Source: an uncultured Mucilaginibacter sp. (GTDB lineage: Bacteria; Bacteroidota; Bacteroidia; Sphingobacteriales; Sphingobacteriaceae). Taken from it: DNA of 64,000 nt. Position 1 is the first letter of the stretch, and each line of letters starts with the position of its first letter. The position numbers were made by a program, and so were the translations under genes. A model generated the notes under the pieces. It was not told the DNA's origin, did no database searches, and was given only the letters and a program-made list of their open reading frames with translations. This document shows, one piece after another, positions 12,437 through 28,253 of the stretch. The DNA is taken from NCBI GenBank assembly GCA_903863845.1, contig CAIPDP010000071.1, forward strand, positions 27,617 to 91,616, read 5' to 3'.

Positions 12437-13396
12437 TCAATACTGCCACAAATTCAGTTCCCAATCCATCAGCTCTTTTTTGATCCTTTCAGATTCAGCA
12501 AGCCTGTCGATACCCTGAGCGTAGTCTTTGATACGCTCGTCTCTATCGTTGGATACTTTAACAATGTAGCTGGTGAAGATACGTTTCAGGAAAATATCGT
12601 CGAAACTTAAGCCTGTGTTATCGTTACTGCGGTTAACGGCTTCTTTGGTAGCCAATATAGGGCGCAGATCAGGGAAACGCACCCAGAATGCTGGTTGATA
12701 ATCGAGGTTTAGTCCGTTTATCTTTTGTTTCTTCATTGGAGCTATGCCGATGATGCGAGGTTCAAAAATTGAACGCTGACGATCAAACACCCAATCTTCC
12801 TTGATGCGGAATTTGATGATACTATCCGGGATAAATTCACCGGGCTGCATGGTTGACCCTATTTTCTCACCTGTATTCTTATCGAATTTATCTACCAATA
12901 CGCTATCCGCCATTTGACCTTTAGCCTGAGCCGGGGTAAGCGGCTTGTAAAAAGCATCCCCATCCGGGTCGTTATCTTTATCAGGTGTTGCATCATAGGC
13001 CGTTAATTCGCCTGCTGCAACTGCGTCCATGATGATGTCGATCAAACGCTGTTTAGGCGAAGCCAGAAACTGGTTCATCTTTTCACGTACATCTATCTCG
13101 CGCCAAACGCGTTTCACATAGGAAGCGTCCGATTCGCGGATATTGGCATACGGCATCGGTTTTGACAGCGTGATGTTGGATTTTTTGAAATAACCATCTA
13201 ACGGCCGGTTATATTTCTTTGCCGGAGCCGCAGCTACTTGTTGCTTTTTTGTCGTATCTACAGCCGGCTTGGTAGTAGCCACAGGCTGCGTTGTAGCCGG
13301 TTTGGCTGCTGGTCGCCTTCTCCTGCGAGTGGTGTTCTGTGCGATGGCACTTACTGTAACCAGGCAAAGCAAAACGATCAAAAATCTTCTTTTCAT
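12437..13396 (-). CDS. gldN: Gliding motility / T9SS protein GldN
   Basis: 319 aa with a signal peptide. Last gene of the K-L-M-N string, with a conserved C-terminal region ending ELMDWELNLWQY. Confidence 0.9.
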   Translation of the reverse strand: MKRRFLIVLLCLVTVSAIAQNTTRRRRRPAAKPATTQPVATTKPAVDTTKKQQVAAAPAKKYNRPLDGYFKKSNITLSKPMPYANIRESDASYVKRVWREIDVREKMNQFLASPKQRLIDIIMDAVAAGELTAYDATPDKDNDPDGDAFYKPLTPAQAKGQMADSVLVDKFDKNTGEKIGSTMQPGEFIPDSIIKFRIKEDWVFDRQRSIFEPRIIGIAPMKKQKINGLNLDYQPAFWVRFPDLRPILATKEAVNRSNDNTGLSFDDIFLKRIFTSYIVKVSNDRDERIKDYAQGIDRLAESERIKKELMDWELNLWQY

Positions 13397-13403
13397 ATCC
13401 CTT

Positions 13404-14936
13404 TTAATTTGCAGATAATACTATCTGATCCAATCCGCGTTGTGAACCATCAGGACCAACTGCGACGATATTTTTAAATATTACAAATGAACCCGGACTG
13501 ATAGAATTCAACAACGAACGCATCGCTGGTGTAATATCCGGACCGTTTGCGTCTAAGGCGATCGGGTCCTGGCGGGGTTTAACCACTACCAGTGTAAAAC
13601 GTGTTACGTTAAATTTGGCATCAAAGTCAAAATTATCCAATTTAGCAAATACCCTGTCTTGCGCTTTGATATTTCCCGTAGCAACGGCACCGCCACTTTT
13701 ACCCGCAAACTGCGGCTTTGGATCTGGTATACGTTTTACGCGGAATTTGGTTGAGCCTAAGGTTAAATTTTTCCCTTCAACCGTACCTGATACGGTAACA
13801 ACATCATTATCGCTCAAGGTAGTTACCTTGGCAACGTAATGGCCAGCAGAACCAGATACTGCACCCTGCGCTATATTGATGCGTATATTTTCTTTTGGTA
13901 TACCAGGAGCAGATACTGATAATGGATTATCAACACCGATATACAATACATTCATTTTATCAGCAGAAACCACAGCCGAAGGTTTGGCAACTTCGTACTC
14001 GCCTGAAATAGGATAAGGTTTTTCCGGGCCATCAACCTGCTTTACATATAAAGTACCTGTCCAGGTATGTTTACCCTCTCCGCTTGTAATTACAGAATAT
14101 TTACCGATACCAGCATTTGCAGGCACATTCTGTCCATCAACCACGATCCTTGGATTAGAATTTTGGTCGTAAGCGGTCAGGTAAATATCCGCCGTATACG
14201 GTTGTCCGGCGATAATATAACTTGATGGAGCAACGCCAACGGCTTTGAACTGATTCAAAGTTACTTGTGCAACGTCGATCTCACCTAATATCCTTTTAAC
14301 TGTTTGGTTTTCGGCACTTTTATTATCGGCCTGTATTTTTGCCAGCGTAGTTAGGGCAGCACCCAGAGGCACACCCTCACCAAAATTTGCTTCCTGCCAG
14401 GTTTTGTTAGGCTCGCCGGTGCGGCCTGCCGGGTCAGCAGTCTCTAAAGAAAAATTAATATCCTTACTTAATTTAGGACCAAGCAGTGCTAGTAATTCCT
14501 TTTTAGTATTCTCAATTTTTGTTCTCAGTGTATCTGCTTTCTTACCATCGATCATCACATGTGGTGCTATATCGAGGTTATCACGTGCATCAACGTCGTT
14601 GATCGTTGGGTTTATACCACCACCGGCTTTGATCAGCAGCGTGCGCAAATTAGTGATGTATTTATCCAGATCGCCTGCCAAAGCACTTGCTTTTTCAGAC
14701 TTGCTTAGCAATGCCTGAGCTTTCTCGGGCTGTTCTTTTAATTTTGTAGCTTTAAAGGCATCATACGTAGTCTTCAGACTCGTATTTACATCCTTTGTCG
14801 ATTGATCAAGGCTGTCCTTAATATGTTTAAATGAATCGAGTAATTGCTCGGGTACGTTCAGGGCAATTAAGCCTAAAAGCACGAGGTACAATATACCTAT
14901 CATTCGTTGTCTTGGGGTTTCTTTACCGCCGGCCAT
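13404..14936 (-). CDS. gldM: Gliding motility / T9SS protein GldM
   Basis: 510 aa. N-terminus MAGGKETPRQRMIGILYLVLLGLIALNV (single TM) is typical of GldM/PorM, followed by a large periplasmic domain. Confidence 0.92.
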   Translation of the reverse strand: MAGGKETPRQRMIGILYLVLLGLIALNVPEQLLDSFKHIKDSLDQSTKDVNTSLKTTYDAFKATKLKEQPEKAQALLSKSEKASALAGDLDKYITNLRTLLIKAGGGINPTINDVDARDNLDIAPHVMIDGKKADTLRTKIENTKKELLALLGPKLSKDINFSLETADPAGRTGEPNKTWQEANFGEGVPLGAALTTLAKIQADNKSAENQTVKRILGEIDVAQVTLNQFKAVGVAPSSYIIAGQPYTADIYLTAYDQNSNPRIVVDGQNVPANAGIGKYSVITSGEGKHTWTGTLYVKQVDGPEKPYPISGEYEVAKPSAVVSADKMNVLYIGVDNPLSVSAPGIPKENIRINIAQGAVSGSAGHYVAKVTTLSDNDVVTVSGTVEGKNLTLGSTKFRVKRIPDPKPQFAGKSGGAVATGNIKAQDRVFAKLDNFDFDAKFNVTRFTLVVVKPRQDPIALDANGPDITPAMRSLLNSISPGSFVIFKNIVAVGPDGSQRGLDQIVLSAN

Positions 14937-14974
14937 TTCCTATGAAATCTAGTTTTAAGGTTTTTTGTTAATTG

Positions 14975-15784
14975 TTAGGCGCGAGGCTGACTCATTGCCG
15001 ACAGCATGTTACCATAAATAGAATTTAATGAACTCAAATTCTTGGCGAGTTTGGTAACCTCTGTTTTAAATGACTGTGAGTCTTCGAGCGATTCATTGAA
15101 ATTCTGCATCGTCGTAGCCATATTCTGGTAAAATTTATTCATTGATTTCAGGTGCGCGCTTGAATCCTGCAGTTCTAATTCATAAACTGCGTTCAAAGCC
15201 GACAGGTTTTTGGCGAGATTATTTACCTGTTCGTGGTACGCTTTTGAATCAACATTGCTTGAAGCAAGTTCGGATAAATTAGCTGATGCGGTTTCAAAGG
15301 CATTGCTCAGTTTATCGTAGCTTGAAGCAGCTGTTTTTAATTTTGAAGTAAACTCGTTAGTGGCGGTGCCGGCATCAGCAACGGTAGAAATTGTTGCTAC
15401 CTTATCGCCAAATGTTCTTAAACCTTCACCCAGGCTTCCGATCAATTCAGGACCGATCTTCGCGTCTTCCAGCATTTTGTCTAATGCCGCTGTGCTCGAA
15501 ACGCCACTGCCGCTGCCACTGCTTCTCAGGGTAGCTTTTGGCAGGTCGCCGGTAAAATCTTCTGCTAATTCAGGATATACACGGGTCCAGTCGATATGTT
15601 GTTCATGTGCTTCACGCTGAAAACCCAGCAAGCCGAACAAAATAGCTTCAGTGCCCAATCCTAAAGTGATAAAGTAAGTAGCTCCGGTCCAGTGCTGGAT
15701 CTTAAACAACAATCCAATGATAACAACGGTTGCTCCCCAGGATACGATGTTGTTAATCCCGTAAGGTTTTTTCTTTCCTGACAT
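14975..15784 (-). CDS. gldL: Gliding motility / T9SS protein GldL
   Basis: 269 aa. Two N-terminal TM helices (WGATVVIIGLLFKIQHW ...), then a coiled-coil cytoplasmic region. Positioned between gldK and gldM. Confidence 0.92.
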   Translation of the reverse strand: MSGKKKPYGINNIVSWGATVVIIGLLFKIQHWTGATYFITLGLGTEAILFGLLGFQREAHEQHIDWTRVYPELAEDFTGDLPKATLRSSGSGSGVSSTAALDKMLEDAKIGPELIGSLGEGLRTFGDKVATISTVADAGTATNEFTSKLKTAASSYDKLSNAFETASANLSELASSNVDSKAYHEQVNNLAKNLSALNAVYELELQDSSAHLKSMNKFYQNMATTMQNFNESLEDSQSFKTEVTKLAKNLSSLNSIYGNMLSAMSQPRA

Positions 15785-15827
15785 AATAGTTTAAAAGTTG
15801 AGTAGTGAAATGTTTAAGTTTTTGTTT

Positions 15828-17153
15828 TTAGTGCTTATCCTTAATATCGCGACCGAGGTAACTGGTTACACAACGGAAGCCTATATATGATTTTGCTGTA
15901 TCCTGGTATTCGTATGAACGTGATGAATTTTGCAGGAAATAACCCACATCTTTCCATGAACCACCGCGCACCACTTTACGTTTCAACACCGGCGGATCAT
16001 TTGGTTTGGCGTCGTAGCTATAATCTGGCGCCAGATCATGGGTAAAGGTAGAAGCTGATTCGTCATAGGCCGAGCTCGTCCATTCAGCAACGTTTCCTGC
16101 CATGTTATACAGACCATAATCATTCGGGAAATAAGAACGAACGTTTACAGTATATGCGCCACCGTCATCGGCATAATTACCACGACCCGGTTTGAAATTA
16201 GCCATCAGGCAACCCTTAGCATTTTTGATATATGGACCACCCCATGGATAGTCGGTACCAACCCTGCCACCACGAGCAGCGTATTCAAACTGTGCCTCGT
16301 TAGGCAAGCGATAGTATGAACGCGGCGGCAAACCGCGAGATTGTTTATAATTTTCGTTGTAACGGGTACGCCATACGTTAAAGGCCCTTGCCTGACGCCA
16401 GGTTACCCCAACAACAGGGTAGTTCCGGTAGGCAGGATGCGAAAAGTAACCTTCAACCATCGGTTCATTGGCGGCATATGAAAAATCACTCAGCCAAACC
16501 AGGGTATCCGGATAAACTGGTACAGTATCGCGAACAATGAAATCAGAACGTTTTTTTGATTTGTCATTATGGTAATCCGCAGCTTCGCGCAATGACACGG
16601 TAGAGAAGTTATATTTCAATAAACGTACATCCAGTTCGTTACGATCAAAAATCCTGTCATCGCCCTGGTAAAACATACCGGATAGCTTGGCGATGTTAGG
16701 ATTGTTTCCTTTTTTATTGGCATCGAACGATAGTGGATAATGCTTTACATAAGCCCAGTTAATATATTTTTTACCGTTATTTAAAGCATTTGAAGCTTTG
16801 GGTTTTAAGAAGTACTTAGGATCGTTCAGGTAATTAGTAATGGCTACCGAGTCGCGCACCCATTGTACAAATTGTTTGTACTTGGTATTGGAAACCTCGG
16901 TTTCGTCCATGAAAAACGCAGGTATCGTTACCTGTTTGGTTTGAGCTAATTGTGAAAAAGTAATATCCTGATCAGTTTGGCCCATTAAAAAGGTACCCGA
17001 TGGAATGTAAACCATTCCGTATGGCACCTCAGCTCTGAACGAGCGTTGTGCAATACCAGTTAATTCGCCTCTGTCACCACTACCCCTGCCCGCGCAACCG
17101 CTTAGCATGATGCCTACGGCTAAAACCATTATTAGATAGTAAATCTGCTTCAT
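15828..17153 (-). CDS. gldK: Gliding motility / T9SS lipoprotein GldK (FGE-sulfatase/SUMF1 fold)
   Basis: 441 aa. Lipobox LSGC, SUMF1-like segments (GMVYIPSGTFLMGQ, YPVVGVTWRQA, RGGSW, GFRCV). First gene of the gld string. Confidence 0.93.
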   Translation of the reverse strand: MKQIYYLIMVLAVGIMLSGCAGRGSGDRGELTGIAQRSFRAEVPYGMVYIPSGTFLMGQTDQDITFSQLAQTKQVTIPAFFMDETEVSNTKYKQFVQWVRDSVAITNYLNDPKYFLKPKASNALNNGKKYINWAYVKHYPLSFDANKKGNNPNIAKLSGMFYQGDDRIFDRNELDVRLLKYNFSTVSLREAADYHNDKSKKRSDFIVRDTVPVYPDTLVWLSDFSYAANEPMVEGYFSHPAYRNYPVVGVTWRQARAFNVWRTRYNENYKQSRGLPPRSYYRLPNEAQFEYAARGGRVGTDYPWGGPYIKNAKGCLMANFKPGRGNYADDGGAYTVNVRSYFPNDYGLYNMAGNVAEWTSSAYDESASTFTHDLAPDYSYDAKPNDPPVLKRKVVRGGSWKDVGYFLQNSSRSYEYQDTAKSYIGFRCVTSYLGRDIKDKH

Positions 17154-19176: not shown

Positions 19177-19259
19177 GTATTATATCATCCTATTTTACCG
19201 GGCAAAAATACCGGATTATTTATCTGTTTGCGCGAAAATTTTGCAGCGATCGGAATTGA

Positions 19260-19299
19260 TTGGCGCAGGGCGGTTTTACCCGATCAAACCCTGCGCCAA
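19260..19299. terminator. 11-bp perfect hairpin just downstream of the cysteine desulfurase gene
   Basis: TTGGCGCAGGG (19260-19270) pairs with CCCTGCGCCAA (19289-19299) around an 18-nt loop. A U-run follows only in the plus-strand reading, so its role as the minus-strand operon terminator is plausible but unproven. Confidence 0.45.
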
Positions 19300-19304
19300 C
19301 TGAA

Positions 19305-21638
19305 TTATTTTTTGCGGTTACCTGCCAGCCTGTACAGCGTTGCGATCAACACATCAATTTCGGCACAAGTATTGTAAAAGGCCAGGGAAGGCCTGACAGT
19401 AGATTCAACCCCGAAACGTCTCAATATCGGCTGTGCACAATGATGACCCGACCGAACGGCTATGCCTTCTTTGTTCAATTCTGTCCCAACCTGCTCGGTG
19501 GTATAGCCATCGAGAACAAATGACATTACGCTTGCCTTGTCCGGAGCCGTACCGATCAGGTGCAGGCCGGGTACACTTTTTAATAATTGCGTAGCATAAA
19601 GCAACAGGTAATGTTCATATTGAGCGATGAGATCGATGCCTAATTTGCTGACATAATCCAGGGCGGCGCCTAAACCTACGGCATCTGCAATATTGCCGGT
19701 ACCTGCCTCAAAACGCAAGGGTGCTTTATGGTATTGGGTATATTCAAAGGTTACGTCTTTGATCATATTTCCCCCACCCTGCCAGGGCTCGGTCTCGTTC
19801 AATAAATCTTCTTTGCCATAAAGTACACCAATGCCGGTCGGACCAAAAACCTTGTGGCCCGAAAATACAAACCAATCGGGATCAAGCGCCCGAACGTCTG
19901 TACGGATATGTGATACCGATTGTGCACCATCCAACAACACCTTAGCACCGGCCTGGTGCGCCATGTCGATCACTTGTTTAGCAGGAGTTATGGTACCCAA
20001 TGCATTAGAAACCTGTGAAAAAGACACCAGTTTTGTTTTAGGTCCCAGTAATTTCGCGTATTCACCGAGTAGCAGCTGCCCGTCATCATCAACCGGGATG
20101 ACCCTTATCTTCAAACCTTTTTTTGCTGCCAGTTGCTGCCATGGAACAATGTTAGCATGATGCTCCAAATGGCTCAATATGATCTCGTCGCCAGGCTTCA
20201 GATTTTGTTCGCCCCAGCTTTTTGCTACCAGGTTGATGGCTTCAGTAGTACCGCGAACAAATACGATCTCATTGACGGAGCCGGCATTGATAAAGGTCTG
20301 GACCTTTTTCCGGGCATCCTCGTAGGCATCGGTGGCCCTTGCTGCCAGCTCGTGCGCTGCGCGGTGAACGTTTGAGTTTTCGTGCTCGTAAAAATAACTA
20401 ACCCGATCGATCACCTGCTTAGGTTTTTGTGTTGTGGCCGCGTTATCTAACCATATCAGCGGCTTGCCGTTAACGGTTTCTTGTAAGATCGGAAAATCGA
20501 GCTTTACGCGATTCACGTCAAATGTGCTGCCATCACTACTTTTGAATTCGTTCGGAACCAAACCTGCTGCCTGAACAAAAGTTTTTAAATGGTTTTTTTC
20601 GTTGAGAAAATAAAAGCTGCTTGCCGATGGTACAAAACCAGGCAACTGCGGTGCAAATGGAACTGATGGGATATTTTTTAAAAGATCGGTAAGCCCGGAG
20701 TCAAACGGCTGGCTTGAACCAAAGGGCAGGTAATCAAATGACGAAGGCAAGGCATAATTACTTTCGATGTCGAGCGGCGTTTTGCCACCGGGCAAAAAAG
20801 CGTTGATATCATTCAGATAAGATGCAAATTCGTTTTCAGACCCTGAATTGGCATTATTTGAGCCGTATTTCCGGGAGTTATTTGGATCCGGAAAACTGGT
20901 TTGCGGATTTGCCATATCAACCGCATTATGTTGTTCTACGGCCGAAGGGGATATGCCACTACCTGCAACTGACTCGGGAACATTGCCCAAACCTGTATCG
21001 TTTGCTCCCGGCAAACTGGGTGCATTGCCCGGTATTTGTTCAGCGTTTACCTGCTCCAAAGCCGAAGGGGATCTCCCTCCGCCAGCAACCGATTGTGGTA
21101 TATGACCGAGTCCCTGATGATTGGGATCAGGAAGGCTGGTTTGAGGATTTTTGATATCAACCCCATTGCCCTGATGACCTGCTGAAGGAGATATACCGCT
21201 GCCGGCTACCGACTGCGGAACTTCGTGTGAGCCAAAGGCACTTGTGCCGGATAAAAAACTATGTCCATCCCGCAGATCGATCGAATCAGGCAAAGGCGAG
21301 GCCGGAACAGATGCACCAACGCCACCCAATGCAGGCGGATTGAAACCCGATCCGGCCGGCAGTATAGGTTGCAAGCCGGGTATTGACTGGGGCGAATCAA
21401 TACCGTTAAGTACCGATCCTGCAGACGGTGGCAATGCAGCATAACCAGTTGAAGCCGGCAGATTACCTGCGCCAAGCGGGTTCGACTGGTTAATGTCAAA
21501 ACCTTGCGGCACTGCATAATTTCCAGTATTCAGCCCTGTTACGCTGGTATCACCAGGCAAGGCCTTGAAAAACTGGTTGGCCAGTTCCTGCAATTCGGCT
21601 ATACCCGGGAAACCTTCTGGTAAATCACTTGTAGTCAT
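19305..21638 (-). CDS. SufS-like cysteine desulfurase with a roughly 370-aa disordered N-terminal extension (predicted encapsulin cargo)
   Basis: The C-terminal ~400 aa is a class V aminotransferase. PLP lysine in FSGHKVFGP, catalytic cysteine in RSGHHCAQP, and WLDNAATTQKP. The N-terminal ~370 aa is Pro/Gly/Ser/Asn-rich and starts with the IAELQELANQFF motif. The gene overlaps the upstream shell gene. Confidence 0.9.
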   Translation of the reverse strand: MTTSDLPEGFPGIAELQELANQFFKALPGDTSVTGLNTGNYAVPQGFDINQSNPLGAGNLPASTGYAALPPSAGSVLNGIDSPQSIPGLQPILPAGSGFNPPALGGVGASVPASPLPDSIDLRDGHSFLSGTSAFGSHEVPQSVAGSGISPSAGHQGNGVDIKNPQTSLPDPNHQGLGHIPQSVAGGGRSPSALEQVNAEQIPGNAPSLPGANDTGLGNVPESVAGSGISPSAVEQHNAVDMANPQTSFPDPNNSRKYGSNNANSGSENEFASYLNDINAFLPGGKTPLDIESNYALPSSFDYLPFGSSQPFDSGLTDLLKNIPSVPFAPQLPGFVPSASSFYFLNEKNHLKTFVQAAGLVPNEFKSSDGSTFDVNRVKLDFPILQETVNGKPLIWLDNAATTQKPKQVIDRVSYFYEHENSNVHRAAHELAARATDAYEDARKKVQTFINAGSVNEIVFVRGTTEAINLVAKSWGEQNLKPGDEIILSHLEHHANIVPWQQLAAKKGLKIRVIPVDDDGQLLLGEYAKLLGPKTKLVSFSQVSNALGTITPAKQVIDMAHQAGAKVLLDGAQSVSHIRTDVRALDPDWFVFSGHKVFGPTGIGVLYGKEDLLNETEPWQGGGNMIKDVTFEYTQYHKAPLRFEAGTGNIADAVGLGAALDYVSKLGIDLIAQYEHYLLLYATQLLKSVPGLHLIGTAPDKASVMSFVLDGYTTEQVGTELNKEGIAVRSGHHCAQPILRRFGVESTVRPSLAFYNTCAEIDVLIATLYRLAGNRKK

Positions 21639-22542
21639 GATAGTGGCCTACTTCAACGTCTTCCAAAACCGCGATCGCATCGTCAACCAAAACTGCCAGA
21701 GAGCAGTATAGGGAAACAAGGTACGAGGCTATTGCTTTATTGTTGATACCCATAAAACGTACTGACAAACCGGGCGATTGTTCGCCTGGCAGTCCTGGCT
21801 GGAACAAACCTACCACGCCCTGGCGACTTTCGCCAACACGCAGCAGGATGATCTTGGTTTTACCGTTAACAACAGGTACTTTGTCTGAAGGTACCAGCGG
21901 AATGCCGCGCCAGGTCAGAAATTGCGACCCCAACATCGAAACTGTTGGCGGAGGCACTCCTCTTCGGGTGCATTCGCGTCCAAAGGCAGCAATTGCCTGC
22001 GGATGTAACAGGAAAAAACCGGGTTCTTTCCAAACCTTGGCGATCAGGTCATCAAGATCATCCGGTGTAGGTGCACCGGTACGGGCCTTTATATGTTGTG
22101 AGGGCGCTATACTATGCAGTAAACCGTAATCTTTATTGTTGATCAGCTCACTTTCCTGACGTTCTTTAATTATTTCGATGGTCAGGCGCAATTGCTCGCT
22201 GATCTGGTTATAAGGTTTGCTGTAAAGGTCAGATACTCGTGTGTGAACGTCAACTACCGTATTTACTGCGCTCAGGTTGTATTCACGCGGATTCTCCACA
22301 TAATCAACAAAGGTTGCTGGTAAGGGTCGCTCATCACGCGCTGAACAATCGACTTCGACATTTTCGGCGTGCTTAACTTTATTTAATCTGTAAACGCCAG
22401 ATTCTACCGGGATCCAGTTCATCAAATGCGTTAACCACCTTGGGGTAATAGATGAAAGCTGCGGTACCGTACGTGTTGCGATCGCCAGCTGCCTTGCTGC
22501 TACGTCGCCTAAAGCAGTTTGCTTGGGTTGTTGCTCGGCCAT
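21625..22542 (-). CDS. Family 2A encapsulin shell protein (SrpI-like, HK97 fold, no cNMP-binding insertion)
   Basis: 305 aa. Segments DVAARQLA, TRTVPQL, ITPRWL, NPREY, SAVNTVVDVHTR, EQLRLTIEIIKERQESELIN, AIAAFGRECTRRGVPPPTV, GKTKIILLRVGESRQGVVGL and SVRFMGIN...ASYLVSLYCSLAVL match my recollection of SrpI-type shells. It is paired with an N-terminally extended cysteine desulfurase. Confidence 0.85.
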   Translation of the reverse strand: MAEQQPKQTALGDVAARQLAIATRTVPQLSSITPRWLTHLMNWIPVESGVYRLNKVKHAENVEVDCSARDERPLPATFVDYVENPREYNLSAVNTVVDVHTRVSDLYSKPYNQISEQLRLTIEIIKERQESELINNKDYGLLHSIAPSQHIKARTGAPTPDDLDDLIAKVWKEPGFFLLHPQAIAAFGRECTRRGVPPPTVSMLGSQFLTWRGIPLVPSDKVPVVNGKTKIILLRVGESRQGVVGLFQPGLPGEQSPGLSVRFMGINNKAIASYLVSLYCSLAVLVDDAIAVLEDVEVGHYHDYK

Positions 22543-22656
22543 TAATTTGATAGATTTAATTACGAGACAAAATAAGACAAAAACATGCTTAATTAACTAA
22601 CAGTCAGCCTTAAAATTGTTAACATTAAGTTCTGTTTAGTTTGCATTTATTGTAGT

Positions 22657-22684
22657 ATATATTAAATCTATAGATTTAATATAT
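22657..22684. promoter_or_regulatory. 28-bp perfect palindrome (candidate operator) next to a TAnnTTTG-type -7 box upstream of the encapsulin operon
   Basis: ATATATTAAATCTATAGATTTAATATAT is exactly self-complementary. On the minus strand, TATATTTG (22688-22695) lies just upstream of it. The half-site ATAGATTTAAT recurs at 22550-22560, 8 nt upstream of the shell-gene ATG. Confidence 0.4.
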
Positions 22685-22790
22685 TATCAAATATAGCACA
22701 TTTCCATTTCATTTTTGAAGTTAGAATTAAATTGGTCTGCTTACTTTTGAGTGATTAGGTTACATTCAATTAAAACAGGATTCAATTGCT

Positions 22791-25682: not shown

Positions 25683-25811
25683 ATTAACGAAAGTTGTCAA
25701 AATAATGGCCCGTTTATATTGCATGCAAGAGCTCATCGGTTCGACCCCGATAATATAATTCAATCGAAATTTGTTCGATATATTTTGTAAGTTTAACAGA
25801 AAACGGTGCTT

Positions 25812-26549
25812 ATGAAAAAACTCATTTTTGTTGTTCTATTTTTGGGATTTTATTCAATTGCATGCAAACAGATTTCAACCAAACCAAAATATGTACAATC
25901 CCCGGCTAAAAAGGGACCAATTGCGGATACTGATTTTATTTCTAGAGAAGTTACCAAAGAATATTATCACGCTGTCTTTATAGAACATAATCGGCAATCG
26001 ATATTTTATACTGACCTTCTCGATTTCAAGATGGACGAGTATGAAAATGATGAATATAAACAAGAATATAAAGTATTAAAAAAGCGCAGCTCTTCTCCCT
26101 TTAAGATTTATGATCTTACCGGTTTGTCCAAAGAATGGATACCCCTATATAAATATAGAAATAAGTATTATATCTACTATCCATCAGATCGGGGTAACGC
26201 TGGTAGGAGAATTATTTCAGATAGTACAATGGTATATCGTTTTATGGATGGCGTCCGAATTGAACCATTTATGGCGGTGAAAAAAGTCGACAACCATACC
26301 TATAGTTTTAATCTCCGTTCACTATTCATCGATACTGGGATTTCACAAATTACTATCCACATAATTGATCCTAAAAATAATATTGTAGTTTGGGAAGATT
26401 CATCACCATATTCGGGGCACTTTCAATTATTCATTGCAAGAGAAAACGCAAAAAACTTCGATATGGTTGTTAATTATTGTAAAGAAATTAAAACAGAGGA
26501 ATTTCAATTTGATGACATCGAATTTGCGAGTCTTTTAAAGGTTCACTAA
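25812..26549 (+). CDS. Hypothetical lipoprotein in the AT-rich islet
   Basis: ORF with signal peptide and lipobox-like SIAC (MKKLIFVVLFLGFYSIAC). Lys/Tyr/Asn-rich, no recognised motif. ATG at 25812; the track starts at a GTG at 25806. Confidence 0.6.
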   Translation: MKKLIFVVLFLGFYSIACKQISTKPKYVQSPAKKGPIADTDFISREVTKEYYHAVFIEHNRQSIFYTDLLDFKMDEYENDEYKQEYKVLKKRSSSPFKIYDLTGLSKEWIPLYKYRNKYYIYYPSDRGNAGRRIISDSTMVYRFMDGVRIEPFMAVKKVDNHTYSFNLRSLFIDTGISQITIHIIDPKNNIVVWEDSSPYSGHFQLFIARENAKNFDMVVNYCKEIKTEEFQFDDIEFASLLKVH

Positions 26550-26788
26550 TAGGTTTTTAGTTTACCTAAAGGCGAAGCAGCCGTATCCAGAATTACTTCG
26601 CCAGGCCCGATCTTTTTGATCAGCCCCACAACCAATGGCAAACAAAGAAGTATCCTCTCATTTTGAAGGCGGGACCGACAACCATCACACTTAAATTTCC
26701 CACTGCCATTTTTAACAAAAAATTGATTTAACGCTTGTTTCATTTTTAAACAATCCCTGGCTTACTTTTGCATTTTAAGAAAACCCCG

Positions 26789-26861
26789 ATGGCCGGAATT
26801 GAATATTGCAATGATTTACAAATAGTTACAATCGAAAAGTAACAAATAAGTAACAATGTGG
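26789..26861 (+). repeat. 73-nt direct repeat, copy B
   Basis: ATGGCCGGAATTGAATATTGCAATGAT...GAAAAGTAACAAATAAGTAACAATGTGG. Same length as copy A, starting 1179 nt downstream of it. Confidence 0.75.
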
Positions 26862-26891
26862 CTTAAAATCCGGTCTAATAAATGCTCATGC

Positions 26892-26928
26892 AAAAAAAGA
26901 GGCCGATCAGATTATAATACAGCCTCTT
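26892..26928 (-). terminator. Rho-independent terminator after the immunity-like gene
   Basis: On the minus strand, AAGAGGC ... GCCTCTT forms a 7-bp stem with a long loop, followed by a T7 run (the A7 at 26892-26898 on the plus strand, which overlaps the stem base). It sits 11 nt past the stop at 26939. Confidence 0.5.
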
Positions 26929-26938
26929 GTTGTATAAT

Positions 26939-27394
26939 TCAGCCACACTTACTAAAAGCCAACTCTAACGCTACAATAATCTCCTGATTTGCAGCTCGAT
27001 ATTTGATAGAAACAGACTCGCTTTCATCTTTATGCAAAAACCCTTTATGTGGCTTTTCAGCAGGCCTCGATGGAGTAAAAGTTATTTGCAATCCATCTTC
27101 CGCAATTGTTACGTATTTATTTAAGTGGTTGTCTAATTCTTTCATAGTTTTCAAGCCTATTTGTTTTAGAAAGTCCTTTCCTGATTGCTTCCAATCTTTC
27201 GGATCAGGTATTCTTTTATTATCGTCATTACAAAGAGAAGCCTTAATGGCATTACCAATTAGATCGGCATTAGCTTCTGTTTCTGAAATATTGAAATAAG
27301 GTTCTGATGCTACTCTGAAGCCGCTTACTGGTTTGCTTTTCCCAAATACTATATATCCTCTATTAGGTATCTTATAAATAGATGCTGTTTTCAT
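26939..27394 (-). CDS. Putative immunity protein for the adjacent Rhs-CT toxin remnant
   Basis: Intact 151-aa ORF whose ATG (27394) lies 1 nt after the stop (27396) of the decayed toxin reading frame, the classic toxin-immunity layout. The family was not recognised from sequence. Confidence 0.5.
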   Translation of the reverse strand: MKTASIYKIPNRGYIVFGKSKPVSGFRVASEPYFNISETEANADLIGNAIKASLCNDDNKRIPDPKDWKQSGKDFLKQIGLKTMKELDNHLNKYVTIAEDGLQITFTPSRPAEKPHKGFLHKDESESVSIKYRAANQEIIVALELAFSKCG

Positions 27395-27395
27395 T

Positions 27396-28253
27396 TTATT
27401 TAACAAATTGTAGTTTGAAATCTATATTATTATCCTTTGCATATTTCATAAAGTTACTAATTTGCGCCCAATGACTTGAAGTGGCTTTCCCGGGCTGTAT
27501 TCCCACTTCAAAAACTTTGCTTGTTAAATCACCACCTTCAACTGAAAAATTCCCGCTGGTAGCGCCTTGGAAACCATCTAAATTATTAACATAGCTCTTT
27601 AATATGTTAAATAAACCGTTTCCTTTAGTGTAAGAATCGACAGTTACATCAATACTTTTTATGCTCGTCGCAACCCCCGTTTCAGGATTAAATTTGTCAA
27701 TAACAGGAAAACCATAGGGAAGATTACCACCTAATATTTGTTCAACTGCAAAGCCTCGTTCCTAAGTATCCAACTCCCAAACAGAATTACTCGTTACAGT
27801 AGTGCCAAAAGTACTGGCAAATCGCCCGATCAAGCCATCGGTCATGACCATAACTGCCCCAGTGAGAACGTATCCCTTCAATCCTCTTTTTGCTTCAGCT
27901 CTTTTTACTGAATCTTCGCTAAATGCCTAATGTGAGTTTTCATCACTCCAAAATTCGAAAAAAGTTGCAATAAGCTTATTGGAATTTTAGCAGCAGCCTT
28001 GGAAATTTTTAAAGTAGCTGGAAAAAGTATTGGCCCGCAACATCTACTACCTTGCGTTTCCCTCCCATCAGGATCTATGTTTAAAATAGGGTTATCCTCT
28101 CCATAATTATAGGACAAAATTTGACTTCTCCGCCAACGGATCCACACTCGTCCACCTTGCTATCACCGGATCGTAGAACCTCGCGCCGTAATCGTATGCA
28201 CTACCACAACTATTTGGGATTTTTCCAGGGTTTTTGGCTGCATTTTTTAGGTG
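27396..28253 (-). pseudogene. Orphan, decayed Rhs-family C-terminal toxin cassette (RHS core end plus nuclease-like CT)
   Basis: Minus-strand translation gives NSCGSAYDYGARFYDPVIARWTSVDPLAEK. A frameshift then leads to ILSYNYGEDNPILNIDPDGRE, the RHS repeat-associated core signature. After a further frame change and an in-frame TAG comes ERGFAVEQILGGNLPYGFPVIDKFNPETGVATSIKSIDV...FVK-stop. A stop lies just upstream, and no RHS repeats or N-terminal domain are present. Confidence 0.7.

Follow-up and report, generated by a model that had tools for sequence, protein, structure and literature searches.

Family 2A encapsulins that are encoded together with a cysteine desulfurase form a widespread group of bacterial compartments. 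Andreas and Giessen (2021, PMC8346489) counted 1281 family 2A desulfurase operons, of which 111 belong to Bacteroidetes, the third-largest host phylum, and Benisch et al. (2024, PMC10836720) counted 1462 operons in 11 phyla, with Bacteroidetes among the four main ones, and divided them into four organisations whose sole constants are the shell and the desulfurase. For Synechococcus elongatus, the N-terminal domain (NTD) of the desulfurase was reported to be necessary and sufficient for loading (PMC8049743). In Acinetobacter baumannii the sequestered product is crystalline elemental sulfur, S(0) (PMC10836720), and discontiguous contacts between the NTD and the shell, acceptor-independent turnover and induction by sulfur starvation were described as well (PMC10836720; reviewed in PMC12746231). 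In Mycobacterium smegmatis, for which sulfur storage was described too, multiple loading motifs are required and the enzyme is protected from oxidation (PMC11659603). The demonstrations of luminal elemental sulfur and of sulfur-starvation induction are limited to A. baumannii and S. elongatus (PMC10836720, PMC8049743). Here we analyse a pair of genes of this kind in a 64-kb stretch of Mucilaginibacter (Sphingobacteriaceae, Bacteroidota) DNA, referred to below as the window.

Taken as a whole, the evidence leaves little doubt that the pair is best explained as a chromosomal family 2A 'desulfurase encapsulin' operon of Mucilaginibacter, with a function that we transfer from the characterised orthologues. 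A preliminary description of the window had proposed such an operon and had stated that no Bacteroidota member was known to be characterised. We likewise found no experimentally characterised Bacteroidota member in the literature, but as regards occurrence the framing as a novelty is overstated or out of date, since the 111 Bacteroidetes operons mentioned above had already been catalogued (PMC8346489).

Identification of the shell and cargo genes

In a six-frame listing of the open reading frames (ORFs) of the window, the 305-aa ORF and the neighbouring gene for an N-terminally extended desulfurase lay exactly where the preliminary description had placed them (Table 1). A comparison of the 305-aa protein with profile hidden Markov models of family 2 encapsulins, which had been proposed as a check, gave significant matches. 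The NCBIfam equivalog model NF041162 was matched with 534.4 bits, above its cutoff of 380, with model positions 1-295 corresponding to residues 11-304, and the Pfam SrpI-like family PF19307 was matched with an E-value of 3.8e-107 (357.5 bits, cutoff 22.8). The match to the family 2B model NF041163 was restricted to the C-terminal positions 210-450 of 450, and no match to the cyclic nucleotide monophosphate (cNMP)-binding domain (PF00027) was found in the shell protein in a Pfam search. Because NF041162 was matched end to end, the 2B model only in part, and the cNMP-binding domain was absent, we assign the protein to family 2A and not to 2B, as had been proposed.

The solved structures agree with this assignment. 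Residues 6-304/305 aligned free of insertions to the cryo-EM chains 8t6r_A (A. baumannii, E 6e-154) and 6x8m_A (S. elongatus SrpI, E 3e-153), the mycobacterial Mmp1 chains matched at about 1e-136, and 2B shell structures (9bje and others) matched residues ~55-300 alone, that is, the HK97 core. Over the full length, the tblastn identity was 73.8% to the A. baumannii shell and 73.1% to S. elongatus SrpI. The protein is a full-length orthologue of the T=1 shells (60 subunits, about 24 nm) formed by S. elongatus SrpI, A. baumannii Enc and mycobacterial Mmp1, and homology predicts an HK97-type fold with the family 2 N-arm and a C-terminal extension. Since the three orthologues to which it is 73-74% identical assemble, the protein is expected to form closed T=1 icosahedral particles as well.

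The 777-aa protein encoded by the second gene scored 881.6 bits against the NCBIfam model NF041166 (f2_encap_cargo1; cutoff 800), a match that covered residues 332-771 and started as late as residue 332 because the N-terminal 186 positions of the model represent a disordered region of poor conservation. The protein also passed the sufS subfamily model TIGR01979 (541.8 bits, cutoff 475), Pfam PF00266 was matched with an E-value of 1.4e-144, and the best match in the PDB was 8kg1, the M. smegmatis encapsulin cargo desulfurase Enc-CD (E 1.4e-182). The cysteine desulfurase (CD) domain is 68.9% identical to that of the A. baumannii cargo and 71.4% identical to S. elongatus CyD. Both active-site strings from which the preliminary description had recognised a complete SufS-like desulfurase were present, and Cys734 aligns to C609 of the A. 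baumannii enzyme, both residues lying within the sequence VRSGHHCAQPILR; a C609-to-Ser mutant was the active-site control when sulfur accumulation was assayed in that system (PMC10836720). We regard the 777-aa protein as a dedicated encapsulin-type SufS-like cysteine desulfurase cargo with intact catalytic residues. Its ATG at 21638 lies inside the last codons of the shell gene, 14 nt upstream of the shell TGA (21627-21625), and translational coupling of shell and cargo at this junction is probable.

Table 1. Positions of the features of the encapsulin locus in the window
Feature	Position	Strand	Basis
Family 2A encapsulin shell gene (SrpI/Mmp1 orthologue, 305 aa)	21625..22542	-	Pfam, NCBIfam, PDB, tblastn
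Encapsulin cargo cysteine desulfurase gene, 777 aa (loading domain and SufS-type class-V pyridoxal phosphate (PLP) enzyme)	19305..21638	-	
Overlap of shell 3' end and cargo ATG, 14 nt	21625..21638	-	sequence read
N-terminal cargo-loading domain, aa 1-370, S/G/P-rich, putatively disordered	20529..21638	-	
Putative loading motif 1, IAELQELANQFF, aa 13-24	21567..21602	-	counterpart of published LARLANEFFS
Three tandem 40-aa repeats, aa 139-258, unit VPxSVAGSGxSPSA...NPQTS(L/F)PDPN	20865..21224	-	self-comparison
Putative loading motif 2, SASSFYFLNE, aa 338-347	20598..20627	-	counterpart of published AASPYYFLDG
Catalytic SufS-like desulfurase domain, aa 371-777	19305..20528	-	homology to A. baumannii CD and S. 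elongatus CyD
PLP Lys596 (SGHKVFGP)	19851-19853	-	
Persulfide-forming Cys734 (SGHHCAQP)	19437-19439	-	
AT-rich divergent intergenic/promoter region between shell and rhamnosidase genes, 248 nt	22543..22790	.	sequence
Perfect palindrome ATATTAAATCTATAGATTTAATAT, core 22664-22677, candidate operator	22659..22682	.	cross-locus enrichment

Related loci and organisation of the operon

Relatives of the locus were searched in reference contigs comprising one genome per species, in which at least 499 stretches were found, and the locus counts given here rest on the best 80 of them (L001-L080). The shells of these loci are 83-98% identical and almost all come from Bacteroidota, with Mucilaginibacter, Puia, Chitinophaga, Ferruginibacter, Dyadobacter, Flavobacterium (including F. 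johnsoniae), Chryseobacterium and Pedobacter among the genera; the top match (98%) is from an uncultured Mucilaginibacter metagenome-assembled genome (MAG). Sixteen public metagenome contigs also carry the identical shell protein, in the same gene order. A desulfurase gene comes directly after the shell gene in 78 of the 80 loci, and the remaining two contigs end just past the shell gene. The names given to the relatives by NCBI (PGAP) read 'family 2A encapsulin nanocompartment cargo protein cysteine desulfurase'. An overlapping cargo start, about 14-17 nt inside the shell gene, was found in most of the loci, and this conserved overlap suggests translational coupling in Bacteroidota.

The preliminary description had noted that the pair stands without sulfur-assimilation, rhodanese or cysE neighbours. 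This was borne out by tblastn searches with Bacteroidota, S. elongatus and A. baumannii references, which found no homologue of serine O-acetyltransferase (SAT), CysK, rhodanese or Rrf2 in the 64-kb window, and no Pfam family of sulfur metabolism was matched among the large ORFs of the first 47.5 kb (1-47.5 kb), ORFs shorter than 200 aa and those beyond 47.5 kb being unprofiled. Among the relatives, a SAT gene adjoins the pair in 49 loci, mostly directly downstream of the desulfurase gene; in Flavobacterium it lies upstream of the pair, together with the gene of a cysteine-synthase-like PALP enzyme. Three of the loci (L001, L002 and L004) occupy the same chromosomal site as the window operon, upstream of DUF4271-HemD-GldK. 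In L004, a SAT gene lies 6 nt after the CD gene and is followed by DUF4271-HemD-GldK, the corresponding stretch of the window being 19177-19304; SAT is absent at that site in the window, L001 and L002. As L004 has kept SAT at this shared site, the two genes of the window are most plausibly what a recent loss of SAT has left, rather than an ancestral or unusual architecture. We class the operon with the minimal shell and CD organisation, because rhodanese and SAT are optional and Enc and CD constant in the catalogued operons (PMC10836720).

Further observations were made on the relatives. A gene for a membrane protein of the Na+/H+-exchanger family (PF00999) lies near the shell-CD(-SAT) cluster in 15 of the 80 loci (L009 11669-12940, L026 6723-7997, L032 and 12 more); it sometimes ends about 20 nt before the shell gene, and it was not found among the published operon components. 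The shell of L073, from the betaproteobacterium Iodobacter violaceini, is 86% identical to Bacteroidota shells, against 72-74% for other Proteobacteria, which suggests a recent inter-phylum transfer. The L066 contig, from a MAG labelled Bifidobacteriaceae, is probably mis-binned.

The cargo-loading domain

The preliminary description had characterised the first ~370 residues of the desulfurase as a low-complexity extension rich in Pro, Gly and Ser. The length and composition (Ser 12.8%, Gly 12.0%, Pro 11.5%) were confirmed, and no Pfam domain was found in aa 1-370; the extension is not featureless, since it contains three 40-aa repeats and the motif SASSFYFLNE. By analogy with the systems studied earlier (PMC8049743, PMC10836720, PMC11659603), this region would be responsible for loading. 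Two motifs, LARLANEFFS and AASPYYFLDG, were reported in most N-terminal domains of SrpI-associated desulfurases (Nichols et al., PMC8049743). The first is the motif with which the preliminary description had compared IAELQELANQFF, its counterpart in the window, and the publication confirmed it; the second has its counterpart near the end of the extension. The A. baumannii cargo contains IARLANEFFS and two YYFL/FYFL motifs, and the S. elongatus cargo contains GSGFYFIDE.

Motif counts refer to the 78 relatives from the reference genomes whose cargo gene could be recovered. The strict LANxFF-type pattern was present in 55 of these cargos, with a near variant at the same position in most others, and the FYFL-type pattern of motif 2 was present in 75; both motifs occupy equivalent positions in the cargos of the relatives. 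The length of the N-terminal domain ranges from 140 to 425 aa among the relatives, which puts the 370 aa of the window near the top. A search of a database of 5.8 billion proteins with the whole N-terminal domain returned 166 homologues, all of them class-V aminotransferases/desulfurases or fragments, and every homologue with gene context lies behind an SrpI-like gene. Occurrence of the loading domain on other enzymes, as an alternative type of cargo, was considered and rejected, as there was none among the 166 homologues and the lone candidate on a long contig, P0007, turned out to be a frameshifted CD directly behind an SrpI-like gene. In one assembly (L089 52-3082, GCA_037975565.1), the desulfurase behind the shell gene is broken into two parts, one of 307 aa with the NTD and one of 222 aa with Aminotran_5, which is a frameshift, a pseudogene or an assembly error.

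The three repeat copies, EVPQSVAGSGISPSAGHQGNGVDIKNPQTSLPDPNHQGLG, HIPQSVAGGGRSPSALEQVNAEQIPGNAPSLPGANDTGLG and NVPESVAGSGISPSAVEQHNAVDMANPQTSFPDPNNSRKY, lie between motifs 1 and 2. They are mutually 42-65% identical in protein and 52-64% identical in DNA, and TRF found no DNA-level tandem repeat beneath them; with so low an identity in DNA, they are old repeats at the protein level and not a recent expansion. Among 96 units collected from the relatives, the consensus blocks (V/I)PxSVAGSGxSPSA and (D/N)PQTS(L/F)PDP(H/N)F are separated by variable residues. The copy number ranges from 0 (e.g. in Flavobacterium) to 5 (in L002) and correlates with the length of the N-terminal domain (r = 0.61). 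The module occurs in conserved form in Sphingobacteriales, Chitinophagales and Cytophagales. It was not found in the S. elongatus and A. baumannii cargos, nor did tblastn find a match in a plasmid/chromid collection that includes many proteobacterial and cyanobacterial Enc-CD operons, a search whose sensitivity may be lowered by the low-complexity filter. On these comparisons, we consider the 40-aa module specific to Bacteroidota.

A conserved palindrome upstream of the shell gene

The core of the palindrome in the intergenic region, AAATCTATAGATTT, lies 122-135 nt upstream of the shell ATG, and a half-site-like AATTAAATCTATCAAATTAAT abuts the shell start codon. In the 80 relatives, the 300-nt stretches before shell genes held 19 copies of the core and the other 1.17 Mb held 35, which corresponds to 0.81 per kb before shell genes versus 0.030 elsewhere, an about 27-fold enrichment. 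The loci with the palindrome upstream of the shell gene are L001, L002, L004, L005, L008, L009, L012-L014, L017-L019, L021, L038, L040 and L045. In several Mucilaginibacter loci, a divergent redoxin/AhpC-TSA gene that adjoins a gene with a DsbD_N domain has further perfect copies in its promoter region. The palindrome may be a shared operator for a regulator. The -7 promoter element of Bacteroidetes is TAnnTTTG, and since each half of the palindrome contains TAGATTTA, the site may overlap a promoter.

In other Mucilaginibacter, a divergent 148-aa gene beside the operon was considered as a palindrome-binding regulator of the Rrf2 type and was rejected, because Pfam showed its product to be a DsbD_N thiol:disulfide protein; no homologue of the Rrf2 regulator of pANL was found in the window by tblastn. 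An Rfam scan of the whole window at the gathering thresholds gave no family match, and therefore no known riboswitch lies upstream of the shell gene. Matches to sigma-70 promoters and terminators were no more frequent than expected from shuffled sequence, with a tool that does not cover Bacteroidota promoters.

Carboxysomal CsoS2 carries repeated shell-binding peptides. By analogy, the 40-aa module could be a multivalent, Bacteroidota-specific shell-binding element whose copy number tunes the tethering or packing of the desulfurase, and the AAATCTATAGATTT palindrome could at the same time be the signature of a regulon, not described so far, through which the compartment for sulfur storage is coupled to genes of periplasmic thiol redox in Sphingobacteriaceae. 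We put this joint reading forward tentatively, as an idea that has less in its favour than against it. We found no description of the variable-copy 40-aa module or of the conserved palindrome in the literature, with the motif logos in the supplement of PMC10836720 lying outside this comparison.

Genomic setting

The heme/DUF4271 gene pair and the rhamnosidase gene named as neighbours in the preliminary description were recovered by Pfam: DUF4271 and HemD are encoded downstream of the encapsulin pair, and a divergent gene for a five-domain alpha-L-rhamnosidase lies upstream. Pfam profiling of the large ORFs in 1-47.5 kb gave solely housekeeping and gliding/type IX secretion system (T9SS) functions. 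A complete gldK-gldL-gldM-gldN cluster (12437-17153, minus strand), which encodes the core of the T9SS/gliding motor, lies directly downstream of hemD/DUF4271 and is co-directional with the encapsulin pair.

The GC content rises locally to 0.495 at 20001-22000, over the shell gene and the Pro/Gly/Ala/Ser-rich codons of the loading domain. This rise reflects the protein composition and alone is no evidence of foreign origin. Elsewhere, a low-GC patch at 25806-28000 (0.356 versus about 0.43 for the window) contains two ORFs, of 247 and 155 aa, that had no Pfam match, and may be a small acquired island.

Proposed function and alternative explanations

The preliminary description had left the substrate and the product of the system open, which is out of date for the family, as elemental sulfur has been shown in A. 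baumannii (PMC10836720). Transferred to Mucilaginibacter, the working of the compartment would be as follows. Shell and cargo would be co-translated from their overlapping junction, and the shell would form a T=1 particle while the disordered domain, by discontinuous binding to its inner surface, brings desulfurase dimers into the assembling shell. L-cysteine would diffuse in through pores, and the confined enzyme, with no acceptor protein inside, would turn over repeatedly and deposit polypersulfide or elemental sulfur in the lumen, where the stored sulfur would be shielded from cytosolic reductants. Expression would rise under sulfur limitation and would probably respond to sulfur or thiol status via the conserved upstream palindrome.

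Nothing contradicts the identification of the pair. Several points nevertheless weigh against the scheme as a whole. Assembly, loading, sulfur deposition and regulation, as proposed here, are all transferred from ~70%-identical orthologues in other phyla, and tblastn found no rhodanese or SAT in the window to suggest a route of sulfur remobilisation. The palindrome is a single site in the window and is by itself not beyond chance, with 0.64 sites expected at up to 2 mismatches, so that support for it comes solely from the cross-locus enrichment.

The compartment might also be the same and its main role different, in that the shell, acting as a gate, passes persulfide sulfur from the desulfurase inside on to one particular acceptor outside, or shields a desulfurase that is sensitive to oxidation, and does not serve to store S(0) over the long term. 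Gating or channelling was proposed in PMC8346489, and protection has a precedent in M. smegmatis, where Enc-CD is shielded from oxidation (PMC11659603); the DsbD_N and redoxin genes that lie beside the operon and share the palindrome in several Mucilaginibacter relatives would likewise point to thiol or oxidative stress. However, no rhodanese or other candidate acceptor lies near the pair in the window, and for the A. baumannii enzyme, which is 69% identical, there is direct evidence that it deposits S(0) and turns over without an acceptor (PMC10836720), so we consider a non-storage role unlikely, while noting that channelling or protection and storage are not mutually exclusive.

Two other explanations concern the identity of the proteins. 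If the 777-aa protein were a housekeeping SufS for iron-sulfur cluster assembly with an odd extension, the adjacency of the shell gene would be meaningless, and its passing of TIGR01979 (542 bits versus 475) fits this. Yet the encapsulin-cargo model NF041166 was passed with a higher score, no suf genes were found among the neighbours profiled, and the extension contains both published loading motifs; furthermore, the shell-CD pair with its overlapping start is kept in 78 of 80 loci, and the NTD homologues with gene context all lie behind an SrpI-like gene. Taken together, these points make a housekeeping enzyme highly improbable. Still less credible is that the 305-aa protein is the major capsid protein of a prophage remnant: although the HK97 fold is common to encapsulins and tailed-phage capsid proteins, the protein matches the curated equivalog model for encapsulins over its whole length, its relatives in many Bacteroidota genera are 83-98% identical and always paired with a desulfurase, and its flanks are without phage genes (gldKLMN, hemD, DUF4271, rhamnosidase).

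With the desulfurase encapsulin operon as the preferred reading, little changes for annotation, and one more soil Bacteroidota genome is added to those with a widespread sulfur-storage system. The variable-copy repeat, the loss of the linked SAT gene and the palindrome common to thiol-redox genes are modest, testable leads on cargo loading and regulation, and those on the repeat and the palindrome would allow the multivalency of cargo loading and the regulation in this family to be tested in a new phylum.

Comparison with known systems

The Enc-CD system of A. baumannii 118362 (PDB 8T6R, PMC10836720) resembles the window in that the CD gene directly follows the shell gene and that the cargo has an S/G/P-rich disordered NTD with LANxFF and YYFL motifs. 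Its operon comprises four genes (rhodanese, SAT, shell and CD), whereas that of the window consists of shell and CD alone, and its NTD of about 225-250 aa carries two YYFL-type motifs and no SVAGSG/PQTSLPDP repeat, in contrast to the 370 aa and three repeats of the window. The SrpI/CyD system of S. elongatus PCC 7942 (PDB 6X8M/6X8T, Nichols et al. 2021, PMC8049743) shares with the window a FYF(I/L) motif in the cargo, and its loading is NTD-dependent. It is located on the plasmid pANL in the order cysK-SAT-srpI-cyd-rhodanese with an Rrf2 regulator nearby, whereas the window operon is chromosomal and without cysK, SAT, rhodanese and Rrf2. The shell and CD genes of S. elongatus are 234 nt apart, whereas those of the window overlap; motif 1 is degenerate and duplicated in S. 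elongatus (ERSLEQLTQTVLQD / ERSLAQLAQAVLQD), and the 40-aa repeats are absent there.

For the Mmp1 shells of M. smegmatis and M. leprae with Enc-CD (PDB 8WOL, 8WON, 9KSL, 8KG1; Tang et al. 2024, PMC11659603), the match to the window shell has an E-value of ~1e-136, and multiple short motifs in the N-terminal disordered region are needed for loading. This region is about 155 aa long with a motif set of its own, compared to 370 aa in the window; the host is an actinobacterium, and a decameric alternative assembly was reported. The Bacteroidota family 2A CD operons catalogued earlier (PMC8346489) have the same gene pair as the window, and some of them have SAT, CysK-like or Na+/H+-exchanger-family genes in addition, which the window lacks. 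The window pair belongs to a known system, of which the family, the minimal operon type and the sulfur product have already been described.

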